Below are positions 4,930 to 34,884 of a stretch of DNA of 64,000 nt, one piece after another. Within the stretch, counting starts at the first letter, position 1. Each line of letters opens with the position of its first letter. A model generated the notes under the pieces. It did no database searches and was not told where the DNA came from. It saw only the letters and a program-made list of their open reading frames with translations. The DNA is from Deltaproteobacteria bacterium. GTDB lineage: Bacteria > Desulfobacterota > BSN033 > UBA1163. The DNA is taken from NCBI GenBank assembly GCA_018333535.1, contig JAGXTA010000071.1:99100-163099 (forward strand), read 5' to 3'. The position numbers were made by a program, and so were the translations under genes.

Positions 4930-6033
4930 TTAGCTTTCAGGTCTAAAAAACTTCTTCCAGCCTTCTCCCTCTCTACCCTTTTTTACGCCTATCTCTTCGA
5001 ATTCCCGGAGTATCTCCTCCTGTCTCTTAGTTAGGTTTTTTGGCGTTTTAACAAATATTTGAACAATAAGGTCGCCCCTGCCATACCCTCTGATTTTTGG
5101 AAAACCTTCGGCTTTAATCTTTAAAATCTCTCCGTTTTCCGTTCCCCTGGGGATTGTAAGGTTCTTTTTACCGTTTAAGGTGGGGATTTCGATCTCTGTT
5201 CCTAACGCTGCCTTGGAAAAACTGATGGGGACTTGGCAGACGATATCATCGCCATCTCTAACAAAGAATTCATGTGGTTCTACAAAGAGAAAGACGAAAA
5301 GGTCTCCAGGGGGACCGCCCCTTTCGCCCTCTTCTCCCTCTCCCCGTATTCTTAATTTTGAGCCTGTATCAACCCCAGGGGGTATCTTGATCTTGATCTT
5401 TTTGGTTTTCTTAACCCAGCCAGAGCCGCGGCATTCCTTACAGGGATGAGAGATGTATTTTCCCTCCCCATGGCATTGACCACAGGTGGTGCTGATGGTG
5501 AAAAAACCCTGTGAACGGATCGTCTGCCCTGTTCCTTTGCAATTGGGGCATTGAACCGGGGAAGTCCCTGGTTTGGAGCCTGTTCCACCGCAGACTTCAC
5601 ACGCTTCTCTTTTGGGAATTTCGATCTCATCTTCTTTTCCAAAGGCGGCTTCATAGAATGAGATCCGTAAGTCATATCTTAAGTCAGCCCCCTGTCGCGG
5701 CCTGGATCTCCCCTGAGACGTTCTCCCAAAACCAAAGAAATCTTCAAAGATATCTCCGAAAGAAGCAAAGATATCCTCGAAGCCTCTGAATCCTGTAAAT
5801 CCGGTTCCTTTTAATCCCTCTATCCCGTAATGATCGTAGATCTCTCTCTTCTGAGGGTCCCTCAAGACTTCATAGGCTTCCGAGGCTACTTTAAACTTTT
5901 CTTCCGCCTCCTTATCTCCTGGATTCCGGTCGGGATGGCACTCCATCGCCACTTTTCGATAAGCTTTTTTGATCTCTTCCTCATTGGCATTTCGCGTGAC
6001 GCCGAGGATCTTATAATAATCTCTGTTTTCCAT
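4930..6033 (-). CDS. dnaJ: molecular chaperone DnaJ
   Basis: 367 aa; J-domain with HPD (CHPDRNP), Gly/Phe-rich linker, four CxxCxGxG zinc-finger repeats and a C-terminal domain. Confidence 0.95.
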
Positions 6034-25267: not shown

Positions 25268-25403
25268 TTTTTATCCCTTCGTAAAAAAGAGGTTTTTTAA
25301 ATTTTAATTAATCGATATTTATTAAGCAATTAATATGCCAAATAATTTCAGAGCTTTCAATAAAGACTACAAGAGAATTCGATAAAACCTTGAATCCAAA
25401 AAA

Positions 25404-25452
25404 GCGCCCCTGGCCCGACTCGAACGGGCGGCACACGGATTAGGAATCCGTT
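25404..25452 (+). repeat. attL: 49-bp direct repeat identical to the 3' part of tRNA-Arg(CCT)
   Basis: gcgcccctggcccgactcgaacgggcggcacacggattaggaatccgtt at 25404-25452 matches 34810-34858, which is inside the tRNA gene on the minus strand. Confidence 0.85.
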
Positions 25453-25580
25453 TTAGGCGCTTTCCTTTAAATTCCCACCGATTCCTTTTAATACATAATT
25501 TCCCTTGACATTCAATAATTTACCTGATACTATCTTTCCTATGAGTTCCTTTTGCTACCCTTTGCTTAATGACCGTTTTG

Positions 25581-25696
25581 GGGGACAGGTGGGGGACAAA
25601 ATTAAACGAATAATAATCCGTGTCCCAAAATTTCGTTTCAAAAAGCACATGGATAAATAATCCGTTCCCCATTTCCGGGGGACAGTGGGGGACAAC
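25581..25696 (+). promoter_or_regulatory. direct repeats between attL and int (candidate integrase arm-type binding sites)
   Basis: ggggacaggtgggggacaa (25581) and ggggacagtgggggacaac (25677); also ataatccgtgtccc (25611) and ataatccgttcccc (25658). Confidence 0.45.
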
Positions 25697-26922: not shown

Positions 26923-27015
26923 ATTGAAAATGGGGAAATAGGCGGGCCAGCCGACAAGCCGGGAACCCTACCCGGTTTTTCCCCATTCACTACAAGGGCA
27001 GCGAAGGGGGCTGAG

Positions 27016-27597
27016 ATGGAAAAGACAGGATGGTTGGAAAATTTCTTGGAGCCATTGGAGAGGAGAGCTAATGAAATTTTAAAGACTCAATCGAATATTA
27101 AAGAGGACTCCAATTTTAAAAAACTGAATAAGGGGAAAGGTGTCTCTCGGTGGCAAGCCAATCCAAAATATCAAAGTGCGAAAGATCTTTTAAAACAGAT
27201 ACAATCTTTTAAAGAACTTATTTTAAAAAATGGAACACCGAGGGACGTTATCTATAAATTAACATGGATACTCGGAATCGCCTATGATATGGGCTGGCCG
27301 GTCCCAAGCCAATATGTGATCGGGCGCTCTAAAGGCGGGAAAGCCCCAAAGAAAAAAAAGGGAATCCTTTTAGCGATTAAATGGGCAAGGGAAAAGAGCA
27401 AACAAAAGAGTGCGCGGGGTTTATGGAATTATTTTAAAAATAAAAACTTTGAAAAAGACGAGTATGAAGTCTATTTCTATCAAGATCCGACCGGCGCGGG
27501 TGAAGATCTTCTTTGCCAAAAAATCGACAGTATAGAGAAAGGGTCTATCAAATTCGAGGCATTTAAAAAATACGTTTACAATAAAAATAATGGGTAA
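27016..27597 (+). CDS. hypothetical protein (integrative-element cargo)
   Basis: 193 aa, Lys-rich, no recognisable domain; followed by an intrinsic terminator. Confidence 0.45.
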   Translation: MEKTGWLENFLEPLERRANEILKTQSNIKEDSNFKKLNKGKGVSRWQANPKYQSAKDLLKQIQSFKELILKNGTPRDVIYKLTWILGIAYDMGWPVPSQYVIGRSKGGKAPKKKKGILLAIKWAREKSKQKSARGLWNYFKNKNFEKDEYEVYFYQDPTGAGEDLLCQKIDSIEKGSIKFEAFKKYVYNKNNG

Positions 27598-28022: not shown

Positions 28023-30245
28023 GTGGACAACAATCAGAATAATTTCCCCCCCCATCTCCAACGATTTCTTTCCAAATTACAGAAAGTCAAATACATCGGC
28101 AGTGGCCGCCACATGGCAATTTGTCCTGCTCACGATGATGGACAAGCTTCCCTGAGCATCTCACAGGGGGATGACGGTCGAGTGCTGCTAAAATGTTTTG
28201 CCGGGTGCGCGGCGCAAGACGTGATGGAGGCCCTCGGTTTGGAGATGAAGGACCTTTTTCCACCCAAGGAGGAGGGGGTATCCTCTCCCTCTCCCCCGAA
28301 AAGGCGTGCAACCGTGCAACCGTCCTGTCAAGTATCTGAAAATACTAAGAATGAACTGGTTGCAGTACCGGAAGGGTTGCATACAACCGGTTCGCAGGGC
28401 TGCACTCTACAGCAGTACGCCACCCTGAAGGGATTGCCCATTTCTTTTCTTCGGGAGCTTGGACTTTCTGATGTCAAATATATCGGGAAGGCCGCGGTAC
28501 GAACACCTTACTTTAATGCTAAACAGGAGGAGATTTCGGTTCAGTACAGAATCGCACCGGATGGGAATAATAAATTTCGCTGGAGAAAGGGATCGAAGCC
28601 CTGCCTGTATGGGACAAATCGTGATTACAAGTCGAACGGAAAGGTGATCATAGCTGAAGGGCCATCCGATGCACAGACACTTTGGAACGCCGGTTTCTCT
28701 GCCCTGGGGTTGCCCTCTGCGGACGGTTGGAAAGAGGAAAGGGATGCTACTTTGTTGGATGGAATCACTTCTATATTTGTTGTGATCGAACCGGATCAGG
28801 GTGGAGTTGCCGTCCAAAAGTGGTTGGCCACCTCTCGTATCCGTCACCGCGTCCGACTGCTGAGTTTTGATGGATACAAAGACCCTTCTGCACTTTATCT
28901 CCATGACCGCGAGAACTTTAAAACCAATATGCAGAAAGCTATGGCGAAAGCTATCCCATGGACAGAAGTGGAGGCCAGGCAGAATAAAGAAGAGAGGGAT
29001 AAAGCCTGGGCAATGTGTAAATCTCTGGCAGAGGATCCCGACATCCTGTCTTTATTTGTCGAGAAAATTAAAGGGATGGGGGTTGCAGGGCAAGAGAAAG
29101 AGGTTCAGATTCTATACCTCATGTTGACCAGTAGACATCAGAAGAGGCCTGTTTCAGGCGTTGTAAAGGGTCAGTCGGCAGGCGGGAAGAGTTATATCGT
29201 TGAAAAAGTTAAGAAGTTTTTTCCCGCATCTTCCTATATTGAGTTGACGGGGATGTCTGAGCACTCCTTAGCTTACGGAGAGGAATCCCTTTCAAATCGG
29301 TTTCTCATTATATTCGAGATCATGGGAATTTCAAATGATATTGCAAACTATCTGTTGCGCTCTCTTCTTTCAGAAGGTCGGGTTTTATACGAGACTGTTG
29401 AACCAGATTCTACCGGCAAACTGAGGGTGAGACGGATTGAGCGACAAGGACCAACCGGTACTATTATCACTACCACTCAAATTCAAATCCACCCTGAAAA
29501 CGAAACAAGACTATTATCGATCAACATTTCAGATTCACAAAAACAAACAAAAGACATTATGGTTGCCCTATCCGCTGAGGAAGAGGAGCCTGATTTGAGC
29601 GCTTGGCAAGCACTGCAAACATGGATTGATTTTGAAGAACATAAGGTGGTGATCCCTTATGCCGAGAATCTGGCAAGGCTGATTCCTCCCGTTGCGGTCA
29701 GGCTTCGGCGGGACTTTACTCAGGTGCTGAATTTGATCAGGAGCCACAGCATATTGCACCAGGCGAATAGAGGGCGGGATTCCAAGGGGAGAATTATTGC
29801 CGAGGTTAGAGATTATGCCATAGTGAGGGAGCTAACTTCCGAGATCATATCTGAGGCTATCGGATCAACAGTCTCTTCCAGAATCCGTGAAGTGGTTGCT
29901 GCGGTAAACACCATCATTACAGGGACAGACTTGGAACCCGGAAAGCCCTCTGCAACCGTACAGGCCATTGCAACCTCTTTAAAAAAGGATAAATCTACGG
30001 TCTGGAGGCAAGTTATGGCAGCCAGAAAAAGAGACTATTTGGTAAATAACGAGAAAGTAAAGGGAAAACCTGCGCAGATAGTGCTCGGAGACCCTTTACC
30101 TGACGACCTGGTTATCCTTCCAAATCCCGAAATGTTGAACGGTTGCACGGTTGCAGTCGTTTCCGAGGGAGGGGGTAGGGACGACCTCGCTACCACTAAA
30201 AATGGACGTTACGAGGTGATGAACGATGGACAACTCACTTATTGA
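28023..30245 (+). CDS. DnaG-type primase (zinc finger + Toprim) fused to a C-terminal P-loop NTPase
   Basis: 740 aa; zinc-binding CPAHDDGQASLS...CFAGC; Toprim residues VIIAEGPSDA and FVVIEPDQGG; Walker A GQSAGGKSY in the C-terminal half. Confidence 0.65.
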   Translation: MDNNQNNFPPHLQRFLSKLQKVKYIGSGRHMAICPAHDDGQASLSISQGDDGRVLLKCFAGCAAQDVMEALGLEMKDLFPPKEEGVSSPSPPKRRATVQPSCQVSENTKNELVAVPEGLHTTGSQGCTLQQYATLKGLPISFLRELGLSDVKYIGKAAVRTPYFNAKQEEISVQYRIAPDGNNKFRWRKGSKPCLYGTNRDYKSNGKVIIAEGPSDAQTLWNAGFSALGLPSADGWKEERDATLLDGITSIFVVIEPDQGGVAVQKWLATSRIRHRVRLLSFDGYKDPSALYLHDRENFKTNMQKAMAKAIPWTEVEARQNKEERDKAWAMCKSLAEDPDILSLFVEKIKGMGVAGQEKEVQILYLMLTSRHQKRPVSGVVKGQSAGGKSYIVEKVKKFFPASSYIELTGMSEHSLAYGEESLSNRFLIIFEIMGISNDIANYLLRSLLSEGRVLYETVEPDSTGKLRVRRIERQGPTGTIITTTQIQIHPENETRLLSINISDSQKQTKDIMVALSAEEEEPDLSAWQALQTWIDFEEHKVVIPYAENLARLIPPVAVRLRRDFTQVLNLIRSHSILHQANRGRDSKGRIIAEVRDYAIVRELTSEIISEAIGSTVSSRIREVVAAVNTIITGTDLEPGKPSATVQAIATSLKKDKSTVWRQVMAARKRDYLVNNEKVKGKPAQIVLGDPLPDDLVILPNPEMLNGCTVAVVSEGGGRDDLATTKNGRYEVMNDGQLTY

Positions 30246-30489
30246 TGGATGTCTCGAAGAGATCGGCAAAGGATACAGGCCGGGCCTGCTGCCGTGGCTG
30301 AAACAGCAGCCAGCCCGATGGCGACGGCTGCTGAACCTGGAGGACGCAATCAATAAGGCGGCGCTTGGGGGCGGTCAGGTAGGGTTGACGGCGGCACTGT
30401 CCGAGTACAAGGACTTCTTCCGGGAGATGGTGACGGCGTACGAAATGAGTAACACATTTCCATTATTCGAAGGCAGGGCAAATGAGTAA
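30226..30489 (+). CDS. hypothetical small protein
   Basis: 87 aa ORF overlapping the neighbours by a few codons. Weak support. Confidence 0.3.
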   Translation: MDNSLIDGCLEEIGKGYRPGLLPWLKQQPARWRRLLNLEDAINKAALGGGQVGLTAALSEYKDFFREMVTAYEMSNTFPLFEGRANE

Positions 30490-31303
30490 ACACCGAAAGA
30501 CAATAACCATCCAGGAAACAGCATATTCAATCCTGGCTGCTCATAATCCAATGACTGTCCGGCAGGTCTATTATCAGCTGGTTTCCAGACAAGTCATAGA
30601 AAATAACCGCGGCCAGTATCAGGCCGTCTCAAATGCTTTGGTTCAGGCGAGACAAGAGGGATTCATCCCATGGGAATGGATCGAGGACAGAACGAGACGA
30701 CCAAGGTCGGTCAGTATGTGGGACAACTTATCTGATTTTGGCTATACAGTTCTTTCTTCATATCGCCGCGACGTGTGGGATTCTCAACCTCATTATATTG
30801 AGGTATGGCTGGAGAAGGATGCGCTCTCAGGGATATTCGAGGGTGTACTGGAACCCTACGGAGTGACCTTGAATGTAGGCAGAGGATATGACGGCTGGGA
30901 CTCCATCCATAATGCAGCTGAGCGTTTCAATGATGGGGACGGAATGACTATCCTTTACTTTGGCGATTTCGATCCGTCCGGAGAGGACATGGCACGGTCC
31001 CTAAAAGAGAGATTAGCCTTTTTTAAGTCAAGTCCGGAAATCCTGAAAGTGGCGTTAACCTACGGGGACATAACCCGTTACAACCTGCCTCCCGACTTCA
31101 CCAAAGTAGGGGATACCAGACAAAAAAATTTCGTTGCCAAGTATGGAAATGTGGCTGTTGAGCTTGACGCTTTACCTATCGATATTCTCCGAGATCGGAT
31201 AGTTAGGGAAGTGGAGGCACGGATGGACCTGAATGCACTGGCAGGGGTGAAGCTGATTGAAGATGTAGAGAGAGAGGAACTGGCAAGGGCATTGGGGCGG
31301 TGA
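30482..31303 (+). CDS. Spo11/TopoVI-A-like protein (5Y-CAP tyrosine motif + Toprim)
   Basis: 273 aa; TVRQVYYQLV (RxxYY catalytic-tyrosine motif), IEVWLEKDALSGIF (Toprim Glu motif), ILYFGDFDPSGEDM (DxDPxG Toprim motif). Motif order and spacing match type IIB topoisomerase A / JetD-like folds. Confidence 0.55.
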   Translation: MSKHRKTITIQETAYSILAAHNPMTVRQVYYQLVSRQVIENNRGQYQAVSNALVQARQEGFIPWEWIEDRTRRPRSVSMWDNLSDFGYTVLSSYRRDVWDSQPHYIEVWLEKDALSGIFEGVLEPYGVTLNVGRGYDGWDSIHNAAERFNDGDGMTILYFGDFDPSGEDMARSLKERLAFFKSSPEILKVALTYGDITRYNLPPDFTKVGDTRQKNFVAKYGNVAVELDALPIDILRDRIVREVEARMDLNALAGVKLIEDVEREELARALGR

Positions 31304-31416
31304 TAACAGTGCGGGTCCTTCCTGGAGGTTTGGCGGTGAGACTGCGCTGCCCGCGATATTCGAGAGGGAGTGAAAATTTTTTTGACTTGACGTTTTACTT
31401 TAGCTATCAATAATGA

Positions 31417-31846: not shown

Positions 31847-32407
31847 ATGGAAATGACGATCAAAACATTTGCTGAGCGTGAAGGAATGAATGTGGTGACG
31901 GTGGAAGAGGCCATCCAGCTGGGGATCCTTCCCATTACAGTGGACGGTTTGATTCCAGTGGATCAAGTCCAAGGGCATTTAGAATGCCTTGAACGGAATG
32001 AAAAAGAGGCCCGGGTTGCACCGATTCGGGAGGAAGTTGAGAGCCGGATATCGGGACGCCGGTCCTATTCAACCTCATTGAAGCCGAACCCGGGAGATAG
32101 TGTGGGGGAGAAAATTTCTTCTTCACGTTTCCATTCAGTCTTTCCGGAATCCCGTCCATTGGGAGAATTTTTCAGTCCAGAAGGTAAGGCGGCTTTTGAG
32201 AAGGCGGCTGCATCCGGCCAAATCCGGATCCTCCAAAAAACGGGTAGCATGAGCGTGGCCTCTTCGTCTTCTCCCCTGGAGGAGAGGGCAAAGCAGACTT
32301 GGAATAGGGATGCCGATATTCGGGAGGAATTCAAAAACAATTTTGCTTCTTATCTCGCTTTTCTCAAACAGAGCGAGGCAGGAAATGTTCGGATCTTTCG
32401 GAAATAA
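31847..32407 (+). CDS. hypothetical protein (integrative-element cargo)
   Basis: 186 aa ORF, no recognisable domain. Confidence 0.4.
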   Translation: MEMTIKTFAEREGMNVVTVEEAIQLGILPITVDGLIPVDQVQGHLECLERNEKEARVAPIREEVESRISGRRSYSTSLKPNPGDSVGEKISSSRFHSVFPESRPLGEFFSPEGKAAFEKAAASGQIRILQKTGSMSVASSSSPLEERAKQTWNRDADIREEFKNNFASYLAFLKQSEAGNVRIFRK

Positions 32408-33278: not shown

Positions 33279-33465
33279 TGTGAATTTGACAGCGATTTTT
33301 GGCGAGGTTTTTCAGGATGCCGATGCATTGAAGGCCATGGCAAAGGTTTTGAGCCGGCAACCGGAATCAATAAGAGACCGGATCATTAACGAATTGGCGT
33401 TGGCGACAAATATTACCGGAAAAGCATGGCGAGATAGAATGCGGGCATTGACCAGTAAGAGATAG
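33262..33465 (+). CDS. hypothetical small protein
   Basis: 67 aa ORF overlapping the previous gene's end. Confidence 0.3.
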   Translation: MIGMVDVNLTAIFGEVFQDADALKAMAKVLSRQPESIRDRIINELALATNITGKAWRDRMRALTSKR

Positions 33466-33560
33466 GTTCTCTGTAAATAAGACAACGCCCTCCAAGTATA
33501 ACCTTGTCCATTTTTAGACAAGGTCAGTAAGAGATAGGTTCTCTGTAAATGAGACAACGC
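33451..33560 (+). repeat. two ~36-bp direct repeats flanking a hairpin (iteron-like)
   Basis: cagtaagagataggttctctgtaaat[a/g]agacaacgccc at 33452 and 33523; the hairpin accttgtc-cattttta-gacaaggt lies between them. Confidence 0.6.
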
Positions 33561-34053
33561 CCGCGACCGAGGCGTGTATCGGCGACGATATCCATTCCTC
33601 TTTCCGAAGTAGTACCCTGGTCGGCGGTGATCCGGCCAGGGGAAGATCGGGACAACCCTTGTCATGAAAAGATGGCCTATCAGAAAAAAAAAGGAAAGCC
33701 TTCCGGACCCTCTTCCAGATCCGGGCAACTGGGGCCTTCGCTTTCTATTTTTTGAGGTTTTAAGCGAACTCCTCACCTTTTTAAAATCGAGGAATGGGAA
33801 GGGAAATATCTCTCTCCCTGGTTCTCACCGGGAGGCTAAAAGAGAAGTGATCGATAGGGGGATCACCCTTCAGGGGCTTGGAATTCGATCATGCGTCGAT
33901 GATCTTTCCGATTCATTACAGGCTAATGAGAGGTGGGCGGTCATCAATGGCAGGCCTACAAGGGTTAAGGTGAATTAAGAAAAACGGCTGTTTTTTGGAA
34001 GGTGCTTTTCGAAAGTTGCCCGGGGGTGTGCCTGGAGACGGACCCGAGAGAAT

Positions 34054-34518: not shown

Positions 34519-34810
34519 CTCTCAGGCTGGATCGCAAAAGGGGGAGATGGATTAATGAGAATATACCGGAGGGGGGAGCTAAGGGAATTGGAGTGCGACT
34601 AAAAACAGTCACACTCTCTAATGCAGGCATAGGCAGGAACGAAAGCCCGATACTAAGGGGATTGGCCGAGTCGCAGTCCATACGGGCGGAGGAGGTGAAC
34701 CAAATGGGAGTCTATAAGACCGTTCATGGCGGGGGACAGATGGGGGATAAACCGTGTTGGGCCAGGAAAATAAAAAAGGCTTGAAACCCTCCAAGCCTTG
34801 ATAGTCTAAG

Positions 34811-34884
34811 CGCCCCTGGCCCGACTCGAACGGGCGGCACACGGATTAGGAATCCGTTGCTCTATCCACCTGAGCTACAGGGGC
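34811..34884 (-). tRNA. tRNA-Arg (anticodon CCT)
   Basis: rc reads GCCCCTGTAGCTCAGGTGGATAGAGCAACGGATTCCTAATCCGTGTGCCGCCCGTTCGAGTCGGGCCAGGGGCG. Cloverleaf with anticodon loop TTCCTAA and T-loop TTCGAGT; no encoded CCA. Confidence 0.85.

Follow-up and report, generated by a model that had tools for sequence, protein, structure and literature searches.

A 64,000-nucleotide stretch of DNA from a Deltaproteobacteria bacterium (assembly GCA_018333535.1, contig JAGXTA010000071.1, positions 99,100 to 163,099 of the forward strand), referred to here as the window, contains a 9.4-kb insertion bracketed by 51-bp repeats at a tRNA-Arg gene. Within this element, a + strand gene (30482-31303) encodes a protein of 273 amino acids (aa) that carries the active-site motifs of Topo VI-A and Spo11. 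The strand opposite this open reading frame (ORF) is packed with stop codons, and NCBI already lists the same sequence as a hypothetical protein from a Deltaproteobacteria metagenome-assembled genome (MAG). The product almost certainly belongs to Topo Mini-A, a subfamily of type IIB topoisomerase A subunits.

Assignment to the Topo Mini-A family

Topo Mini-A was described in 2019 (Takahashi, Da Cunha, Krupovic, Mayer, Forterre, Gadelle, NAR Genomics & Bioinformatics 2:lqz021; PMC7671362). The family was defined as A-subunit homologs of about 300 aa in which the N-terminal portion of the 5Y-CAP domain that binds B is missing and which carry an RxxY/FY motif, a glutamate plus DxDxxG, and a diagnostic C-terminal ‘xWELDAL’ T2BI box. 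Viruses and proviruses were the carriers, no B subunit was encoded close by, and a search by the discoverers for a ‘Mini-B’ partner found none (PMC7671362). All of the defining features are present at 30482-31303 except the tryptophan of the box, which is a valine here.

Residues 22-267 of the protein match PHROG 6247, ‘DNA topoisomerase’, with E=1.5e-61. Two proteins from Asgard-archaeal elements, annotated by their depositors as ‘Topo mini-A’ (LC711082, LC711084), align with 33% identity over 91% coverage (E=2e-33). With tblastn, near-full-length homologs turned up in 85 phage records, among them phages of Listeria, Pseudomonas, Salmonella, Xylella and Flavobacterium, and several of these are annotated ‘DNA topoisomerase’. 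Listeria, Pseudomonas and Salmonella are host groups named in the original description (PMC7671362). The family is large, with 7,687 clusters at 50% identity reaching E<=1e-3 and 866 reaching E<=1e-30. No Pfam or NCBIfam model captures it: TP6A_N and DUF2399 remain below threshold (14.3 bits against a cutoff of 23.4 for DUF2399), and NCBIfam gives no match. Since the protein belongs to a family already described, the novelty proposed in the initial annotation does not hold. No match to a characterised family of different function emerged, and Mini-A itself is without an experimentally established function.

Related families were tried and rejected. For Topo VI-A proper, the protein scores 13.1 bits with Pfam TP6A_N against a cutoff of 26 (E=0.09), and the B subunit gene is absent; neither the element nor 38 related loci contain a Top6B or Top6BL partner gene. 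The PADLOC models of JetD align with only 24-48 residues around the DxD motif (E=0.003-0.02), and JetD/MksG was set aside. Topo VIII was dropped on the grounds that the 273-aa protein has no ATPase domain and that its box reads AVELDAL, not RVELNAM.

Active-site motifs and predicted fold

The three motifs quoted in the initial annotation are present in the ORF, and their key residues do not vary among 78 aligned homologs with identities down to about 30%. The sequence TVRQVYYQLV occupies aa 25-34, where R27-Q-V-Y30-Y31 fits the pattern R-x-x-[Y/F]-Y. It is followed by IEVWLEKDALSGIF (aa 106-119), which contains the Toprim glutamate E111, and by GDFDPSGEDM (aa 161-170), in which D162-F-D164-P-S-G167 forms the DxDxxG motif. 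The C-terminal T2BI box, A-V-E227-L-D-A-L231, spans aa 225-231 and retains ELDAL. Residues R27, Y31, E111, K112, G161, D162, D164, P165, G167 and E227 are invariant across the alignment, and Y30 is kept in at least 90% of the homologs. This invariance, together with the PHROG 6247 match, argues that the motifs are not there by chance. Only 26 residues precede R27; the corresponding pair in M. jannaschii Top6A is R99/Y103.

A search of the PDB with the single sequence returned no match. The family profile reached M. jannaschii Topo VI-A (1d3y) weakly, with E=0.035, in an alignment that covers both regions in order and places R27, Y30 and Y31 on ‘TLREAYY’. An AlphaFold2 model built from the 78-sequence alignment (mean pLDDT 89, pTM 0.82) begins with one helix, followed by a winged helix. 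When the model was compared with the PDB by Foldseek, Topo VI-A came first (9o8p_A, E=8.8e-5; 1d3y, E=4.9e-4; probability 0.99-1.0), and the best structural matches were Topo VI-A, Spo11 and MksG. As modelled, Mini-A is a winged-helix 5Y-CAP plus Toprim protein, kin of Topo VI-A and Spo11. The fold put forward in the initial annotation is thus borne out by the profile match, the model and the structural search, and the comparison proposed there as a check recovers 5Y-CAP/Toprim with Topo VI-A in first place.

The integrated element

The coordinates of the features are collected in Table 1, where L001 denotes one of the related loci (L numbers) described below. The genes from the integrase through the 186-aa ORF all lie on the + strand. 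The perfect 51-bp repeat at tRNA-Arg and the integrase confirm the integrative character proposed earlier. With its integrase, own replicase, int-alpA RNA, terminase-small-subunit (TerS)-like ORF and lack of virion genes, the element looks, from its gene content, like a phage satellite resembling phage-inducible chromosomal islands (PICI-like). No capsid, portal or tail genes were detected among its ORFs with Pfam and PHROG, five ORFs being without annotation. Pfam, PHROG and PADLOC scans of the same ORFs found no structural maintenance of chromosomes (SMC) or kleisin proteins, and the earlier statement that the protein stands alone, without JetABC or Mks partners, holds for the 9.4-kb element. 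Likewise, no ORF of the element matches a Bergerat-fold/GHKL or transducer domain.

Table 1. Features of the 9.4-kb element (window coordinates)
Feature	Coordinates	Strand	Description
attL	25402-25452		left copy of the perfect 51-bp direct repeat; duplicates the 3′ part of tRNA-Arg
Tyrosine integrase, 399 aa	25723-26922	+	Pfam Phage_integrase, E=2.5e-28
int-alpA RNA (RF02996)	26931-26998	+	right after the integrase stop; Rfam 41.7 bits against gathering 35.8, E=4.8e-6
193-aa ORF	27016-27597	+	no family match; 193-aa ORF at the same position in the L001 element
HTH_17 protein (AlpA/excisionase-type), 89 aa	27632-27901	+	Pfam HTH_17, E=2.2e-4
Primase-helicase, 740 aa	28023-30245	+	phrog_6088 ‘DNA primase’, E=3.3e-26; phrog_239 ‘primase/helicase’
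Iteron-like TGCAACCG, tandem pair	28307/28315	+	inside the primase-helicase gene; spans 28307-28323
Iteron-like TGCAACCG, single copy	29951	+	spans 29951-29958
Iteron-like TGCAACCG, tandem pair	30140/30148	-	spans 30139-30155
87-aa ORF	30226-30489	+	between primase-helicase and Mini-A, overlapping both
Topo Mini-A gene	30482-31303	+	ATG start, 273 aa, stop codon within the coordinates
TerS-like ORF, 103 aa	31435-31746	+	N-terminal Nu1-type helix-turn-helix; phrog_57 ‘terminase small subunit’, E=1.7e-9
186-aa ORF	31847-32407	+	N-terminal Cox/excisionase-type helix-turn-helix; phrog_575, E=4.3e-5, residues 3-30
attR	34808-34858		right 51-bp copy, 3′ part of tRNA-Arg
tRNA-Arg(CCT)	34810-34884	-	

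The primase-helicase combines an N-terminal zinc ribbon and Toprim DnaG-like primase with a C-terminal P-loop ATPase. It is preceded by the gene of a helix-turn-helix (HTH) protein and followed by the 87-aa ORF and Mini-A, the last gene of the series. The 87-aa ORF shares its first 20 nt with the end of the primase-helicase gene and its last 8 nt with the beginning of Mini-A. These overlapping starts and stops indicate that Mini-A is the last, translationally coupled gene of a replication operon. A 130-nt gap with a promoter-like site at 31387-31414 separates it from the TerS-like ORF. Homologs of the 87-aa ORF with 55% identity occupy the same position in L011-L013, and a 39% match is found in L009, elsewhere in the locus. 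The 87-aa ORF is not a conserved partner across the Mini-A family.

The 103-aa TerS-like ORF is absent from the ORF list because it has no ATG, GTG or TTG start; its apparent CTG start lies 5 nt from a GAGGAGG ribosome-binding site. A 14-codon ATG ORF (31413) in another frame overlaps this start, so the apparent CTG start might instead reflect an indel in the assembly. The neighbouring 186-aa ORF has no similarity to the TerS of L001.

A candidate replication origin, proposed from repeat content, lies in the primase-helicase gene. Its two TGCAACCG tandem pairs are in inverted orientation about 1.8 kb apart, and they were also detected as an inverted repeat. The window contains 8 copies of the 8-mer GCAACCGT, where 0.64 would be expected, and 5 of these copies fall in the primase-helicase gene. 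The homologous gene of L011 carries TGCAACNG tandem pairs at equivalent offsets. By analogy, this arrangement is reminiscent of the ori/crr sites flanking the P4 alpha gene.

Two further repeats were noted in the element. The sequence GGGGGACAGnTGGGGGAyAA occurs three times, at 25573-25599 and 25669-25695 (inside attL, upstream of the integrase) and at 34724-34750 (inside attR); the copies are candidate arm-type sites for the integrase or a directionality factor. Downstream of a 67-aa ORF, two 38-nt direct repeats (33453-33490 and 33525-33562) are 97% identical and 72 nt apart, with no Rfam match, and could be a pac/cos-like or regulatory site.

Relatives and gene neighbourhoods

Close relatives of the protein, with 55-80% identity, are spread over more than 10 phyla in MAGs of Chloroflexota, Acidobacteriota, Planctomycetota, Verrucomicrobiota, Armatimonadota, Spirochaetota, Bacillota, Alphaproteobacteria and others; relatives on viral contigs mostly show 33-45% identity. 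A recurring layout of integrase, HTH, replicase, small ORF and Mini-A is found among the relatives. Within these elements no gene is as well conserved as Mini-A, as comparison of the window with L001, L011, L036 and others shows. For instance, the window and L011 share 74% identity in Mini-A, 60% in the primase-helicase and 29% in the integrase. With L001, identity is 73% for Mini-A and 30% for the integrase, and the L001 replicase belongs to another family (RepB_primase/PriCT_1/AAA_25). More generally, Mini-A of the close relatives lies one or two genes from replicases of DnaG/DnaB type, Prim-Pol/D5 type or RepB-primase/AAA_25 type. This conservation of Mini-A in combination with non-homologous replicases suggests modular exchange and a function independent of any specific replicase.

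Pfam families of neighbouring genes were surveyed at 30 non-redundant loci. HTH_17 is the commonest among the 82 upstream neighbours (6), which also include AAA_25 (5), DnaB_C (3), Zn_ribbon_DnaG (3), Prim-Pol (2), D5_N, PriCT_1/2 and RepB_primase. The 84 downstream neighbours comprise integrases, resolvases, methylases, HNH (2), Terminase_4, GP3_package and further replicases; TerS (GP3_package, phrog_606) and HNH genes follow Mini-A in L001 and L011. A small gene set was seen in L039, a 7.3-kb contig of an Opitutia MAG (SABN01000124.1, 1-7319). It encodes an integrase, HTH_17, a Mini-A 58% identical to that of the window and a DnaB-like/AAA_25 helicase, plus small ORFs only. The contig is probably circular, judging from its 99-bp terminal direct repeat, and may be the excised form of the same kind of element.

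Phage copies lie in the replication/recombination module. In phage NP1 the order is primase, dUTPase, RNase H, ThyX, ligase, Mini-A, Sak4, Cas4-type exonuclease and helicase. The setting in phages LWP01 and TCUEAP2 is similar, and polymerase and single-stranded DNA-binding protein genes are among the neighbours in the three phages. On 67 viral contigs, Mini-A neighbours include helicases, exonucleases, SbcC-like ATPases, RecT, DnaB, Pol III beta and methylases; a portal protein accounts for 1 of 150 neighbours, and no terminase is among the 25 most frequent neighbour families.

Small circular replicons and plasmids also carry the gene. Mini-A is the only recognisable DNA enzyme of the 8.8-kb circular Asgard element 8H_18. 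The Paenibacillus durus ‘plasmid’ NZ_CP009289.1 (L177), a 15-kb circle, encodes a Mini-A with 41% identity at 5115-6008, and none of its ten largest ORFs matches a known replication initiator. It appears inovirus-like because of a Zot-domain morphogenesis gene, a hallmark of filamentous phages. A plasmid collection yielded 45 Mini-A records with 28-41% identity, 36 of them from Streptomyces (e.g. NZ_CP108601.1, NC_006571.1), so the family is not restricted to viruses, unlike in the original description.

At 57 of 167 loci, Mini-A has a small ORF on the same strand immediately next to it. A phmmer search of the small ORFs upstream of Mini-A, directed at a ‘Mini-B’, gave no single family, and BLAST clustering of neighbours at 154 loci recovered only integrases (44 loci) and one primase-helicase cluster (29 loci). 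The element's own proteins p193, p186, p75, p171, p67, p104 and m154 were not found in any of 176 Mini-A loci. By these sequence comparisons Mini-A has no conserved protein partner, in agreement with the published failure of its discoverers to find one.

Possible functions

Taken together with its motifs, the setting of the gene suggests that Mini-A probably acts in replication or recombination through tyrosine-mediated DNA cleavage. The coupling to the primase-helicase and the position of phage copies within replication/recombination modules support this. In this model, Mini-A would form a dimer, like Topo VI-A and Spo11. Tyr31 would attack DNA with Mg2+ held by E111, D162 and D164, leaving a 5′-phosphotyrosyl link and a free 3′-OH. 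No strand passage is expected, because the ATPase (B) subunit is absent. A controlled nick or double-strand break would then be made in the element's own DNA during replication, and the free 3′-OH could prime rolling-circle or recombination-dependent synthesis. Theta replication started by the primase-helicase might in this way be converted into concatemers that a helper phage terminase could package. This priming step, or ‘sigma-switch’ to concatemers packaged by a helper terminase, is put forward tentatively. TerS-like or HNH genes after Mini-A here, in L001 and in L011 are consistent with such a link to packaging.

One published proposal, drawn from the analogy with HUH endonucleases, is that Mini-A starts genome replication in skuldviruses. 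The small circular replicons that carry Mini-A and no recognised initiator (8H_18, L177 and the skuldviruses) and the small gene set of L039 favour the idea of an initiator. By analogy, a 5′-phosphotyrosyl end and a free 3′-OH are just what a rolling-circle initiator supplies. In its boldest form, which we regard as rather unlikely, Mini-A would represent a second, HUH-independent class of tyrosine replication initiators, or a ‘sigma-switch’ nickase, that acts at a specific site. The cut would be made by a Spo11-like dimer, or by one active protomer alone, which would remain bound to the 5′ end and free the 3′-OH. If so, the bare ancestral cleavage module of Spo11 and Topo VI would be a replication-initiating nuclease of mobile elements, and the conserved subfamily, with its 55-80% identity and interchangeable replicases, would offer a tractable model. 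The ‘unusual replication or nicking initiator’ offered as a second option by the initial annotation is thus a better reading than the effector proposed beside it and matches the published hypothesis, but the protein is probably not the primary initiator here.

Several points weigh against a cleavage role in replication or recombination. The element has a primase-helicase and candidate iterons of its own, which makes Mini-A unlikely to be the primary initiator. In compact elements every module lies close to the others, so gene neighbourhood carries little weight as evidence. Cleavage is read from conserved residues only, because no Mini-A biochemistry has been published, and articles from 2021 to 2026 still call the function unknown. 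Global superposition of the monomer model on Topo VI-A is poor (TM ~0.35), because the relative orientation of the two domains differs in the monomer model. Finally, the signature tryptophan of the T2BI box is replaced by valine throughout the Mini-A subfamily found here (AVELDAL/SVELDAL), leaving 5 of 6 signature positions; NP1-type homologs have SWELDAL.

Alternatives to this role make different use of the same evidence. A true topoisomerase would relax or decatenate the circles of the element with an ATPase or clamp partner (‘Mini-B’), host- or element-encoded, that has escaped recognition. Homology to the A subunit of the type IIB enzymes Topo VI and Topo VIII, the conserved dimer-interface box, the decatenation needed by small circular replicons, and the family name and phage annotations that read ‘DNA topoisomerase’ all point this way. 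However, no Bergerat-fold/GHKL gene is present in the element or was found by the discoverers of the family, the small ORFs upstream share no common family, and the larger neighbours are non-homologous replicases, which together make such an enzyme unlikely. A role in genome-end formation or packaging, in which Mini-A would act with TerS-like or HNH proteins to cut concatemers at a site resembling cos or pac and might leave protein attached to the 5′ ends, draws on the TerS-like ORF directly downstream and on the TerS and HNH genes after Mini-A in L001 and L011. Operon structure and phage contexts lower its rank, and it appears quite improbable: Mini-A shares overlapping ends with the replication genes before it but is set apart from the TerS-like ORF by a gap and a promoter-like site, and complete phages place it in the replication/recombination module, away from the terminase genes. 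The near absence of portal proteins and the lack of terminases among the frequent neighbours on viral contigs point in the same direction.

The initial annotation favoured a nuclease effector directed against helper phages or rival plasmids, in the manner of JetD/MksG. Kinship with JetD stands as far as the common Toprim fold, but the likeness is confined to 24-48 residues at the Toprim DxD. The catalytic tyrosine, invariant in Mini-A, is to our knowledge absent from JetD and MksG. The family is moreover common in virulent and temperate phages, sitting within replication/recombination modules of lytic phages and beside primases and helicases in small elements. Here the gene is coupled to the primase-helicase, not placed at a cargo or hotspot position, and JetABC/Mks genes are absent; an anti-phage or anti-plasmid effector is very unlikely. 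Least credible of all would be a catalytically silent DNA-binding or regulatory protein, such as an excision or replication accessory factor, that has kept only the fold. The tyrosine, the arginine, the three metal-binding acidic residues and the T2BI glutamate are strictly invariant in the 78 homologs, and 55-80% identity over more than 10 phyla argues for selection on catalysis.

Implications

Mini-A represents the minimal, ATPase-less form of the cleaving module common to Topo VI and meiotic Spo11. The present locus contributes context, not a new class of protein: a conserved Mini-A subfamily on small satellite-like elements built from an integrase and a replicase. What is new is modest: the satellite-like carrier, strong conservation of the subfamily alongside unrelated replicases, occurrence on plasmids and the lack of a conserved partner. 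These observations narrow the range of plausible functions to a step in DNA replication or recombination that is independent of the replicase. The 7-10 kb elements, the small circular replicons and gp49 of phage NP1 are compact systems for its study. If Mini-A does prove to be a nick- or break-forming initiator, this would be relevant to how type IIB topoisomerases and Spo11 arose.

Comparison with known systems

JetD and MksG share with Mini-A only the Toprim fold. They have a different N-terminal arm domain and work with JetABC or MksBEF, and such SMC partners are not present in the element. Topo VIII, a plasmid-borne type IIB enzyme in which B and A are fused, has a GHKL ATPase and transducer, an RVELNAM box and an extra arginine after the tyrosine, none of which is found in the Mini-A described here.

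Topo VI-A and Spo11 (TP6A_N + Toprim; 1d3y, 2zbk, 2q2e, 9o8p, 8uru) have the same two domains, in the same order and with the same catalytic residues. Mini-A is about 100 residues shorter, lacks the N-terminal region that interacts with B and has no Top6B/Top6BL partner; its T2BI box contains ELDAL where Topo VI-A and Spo11 have R/KxExxA/S.

The likeness to HUH rolling-circle Rep proteins is a functional analogy only, the folds being unrelated. Both HUH Rep and type IIB chemistries yield a 5′-phosphotyrosyl adduct and a free 3′-OH, and Mini-A occupies the place expected of a Rep in small circular replicons that do not encode one.

The closest counterpart is Topo Mini-A itself (PHROG 6247), with which the protein agrees in size (~270-300 aa), stand-alone occurrence, truncated 5Y-CAP N-terminus, motifs, mobile carrier and lack of a B subunit gene nearby. 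It differs from the published description in having valine for the tryptophan of ‘xWELDAL’. Its carrier is a satellite-like element with an integrase, a primase-helicase and no virion genes, whereas the paper generalises to viruses and proviruses. The subfamily to which it belongs is also unusually conserved, with 55-80% identity maintained over more than 10 phyla.

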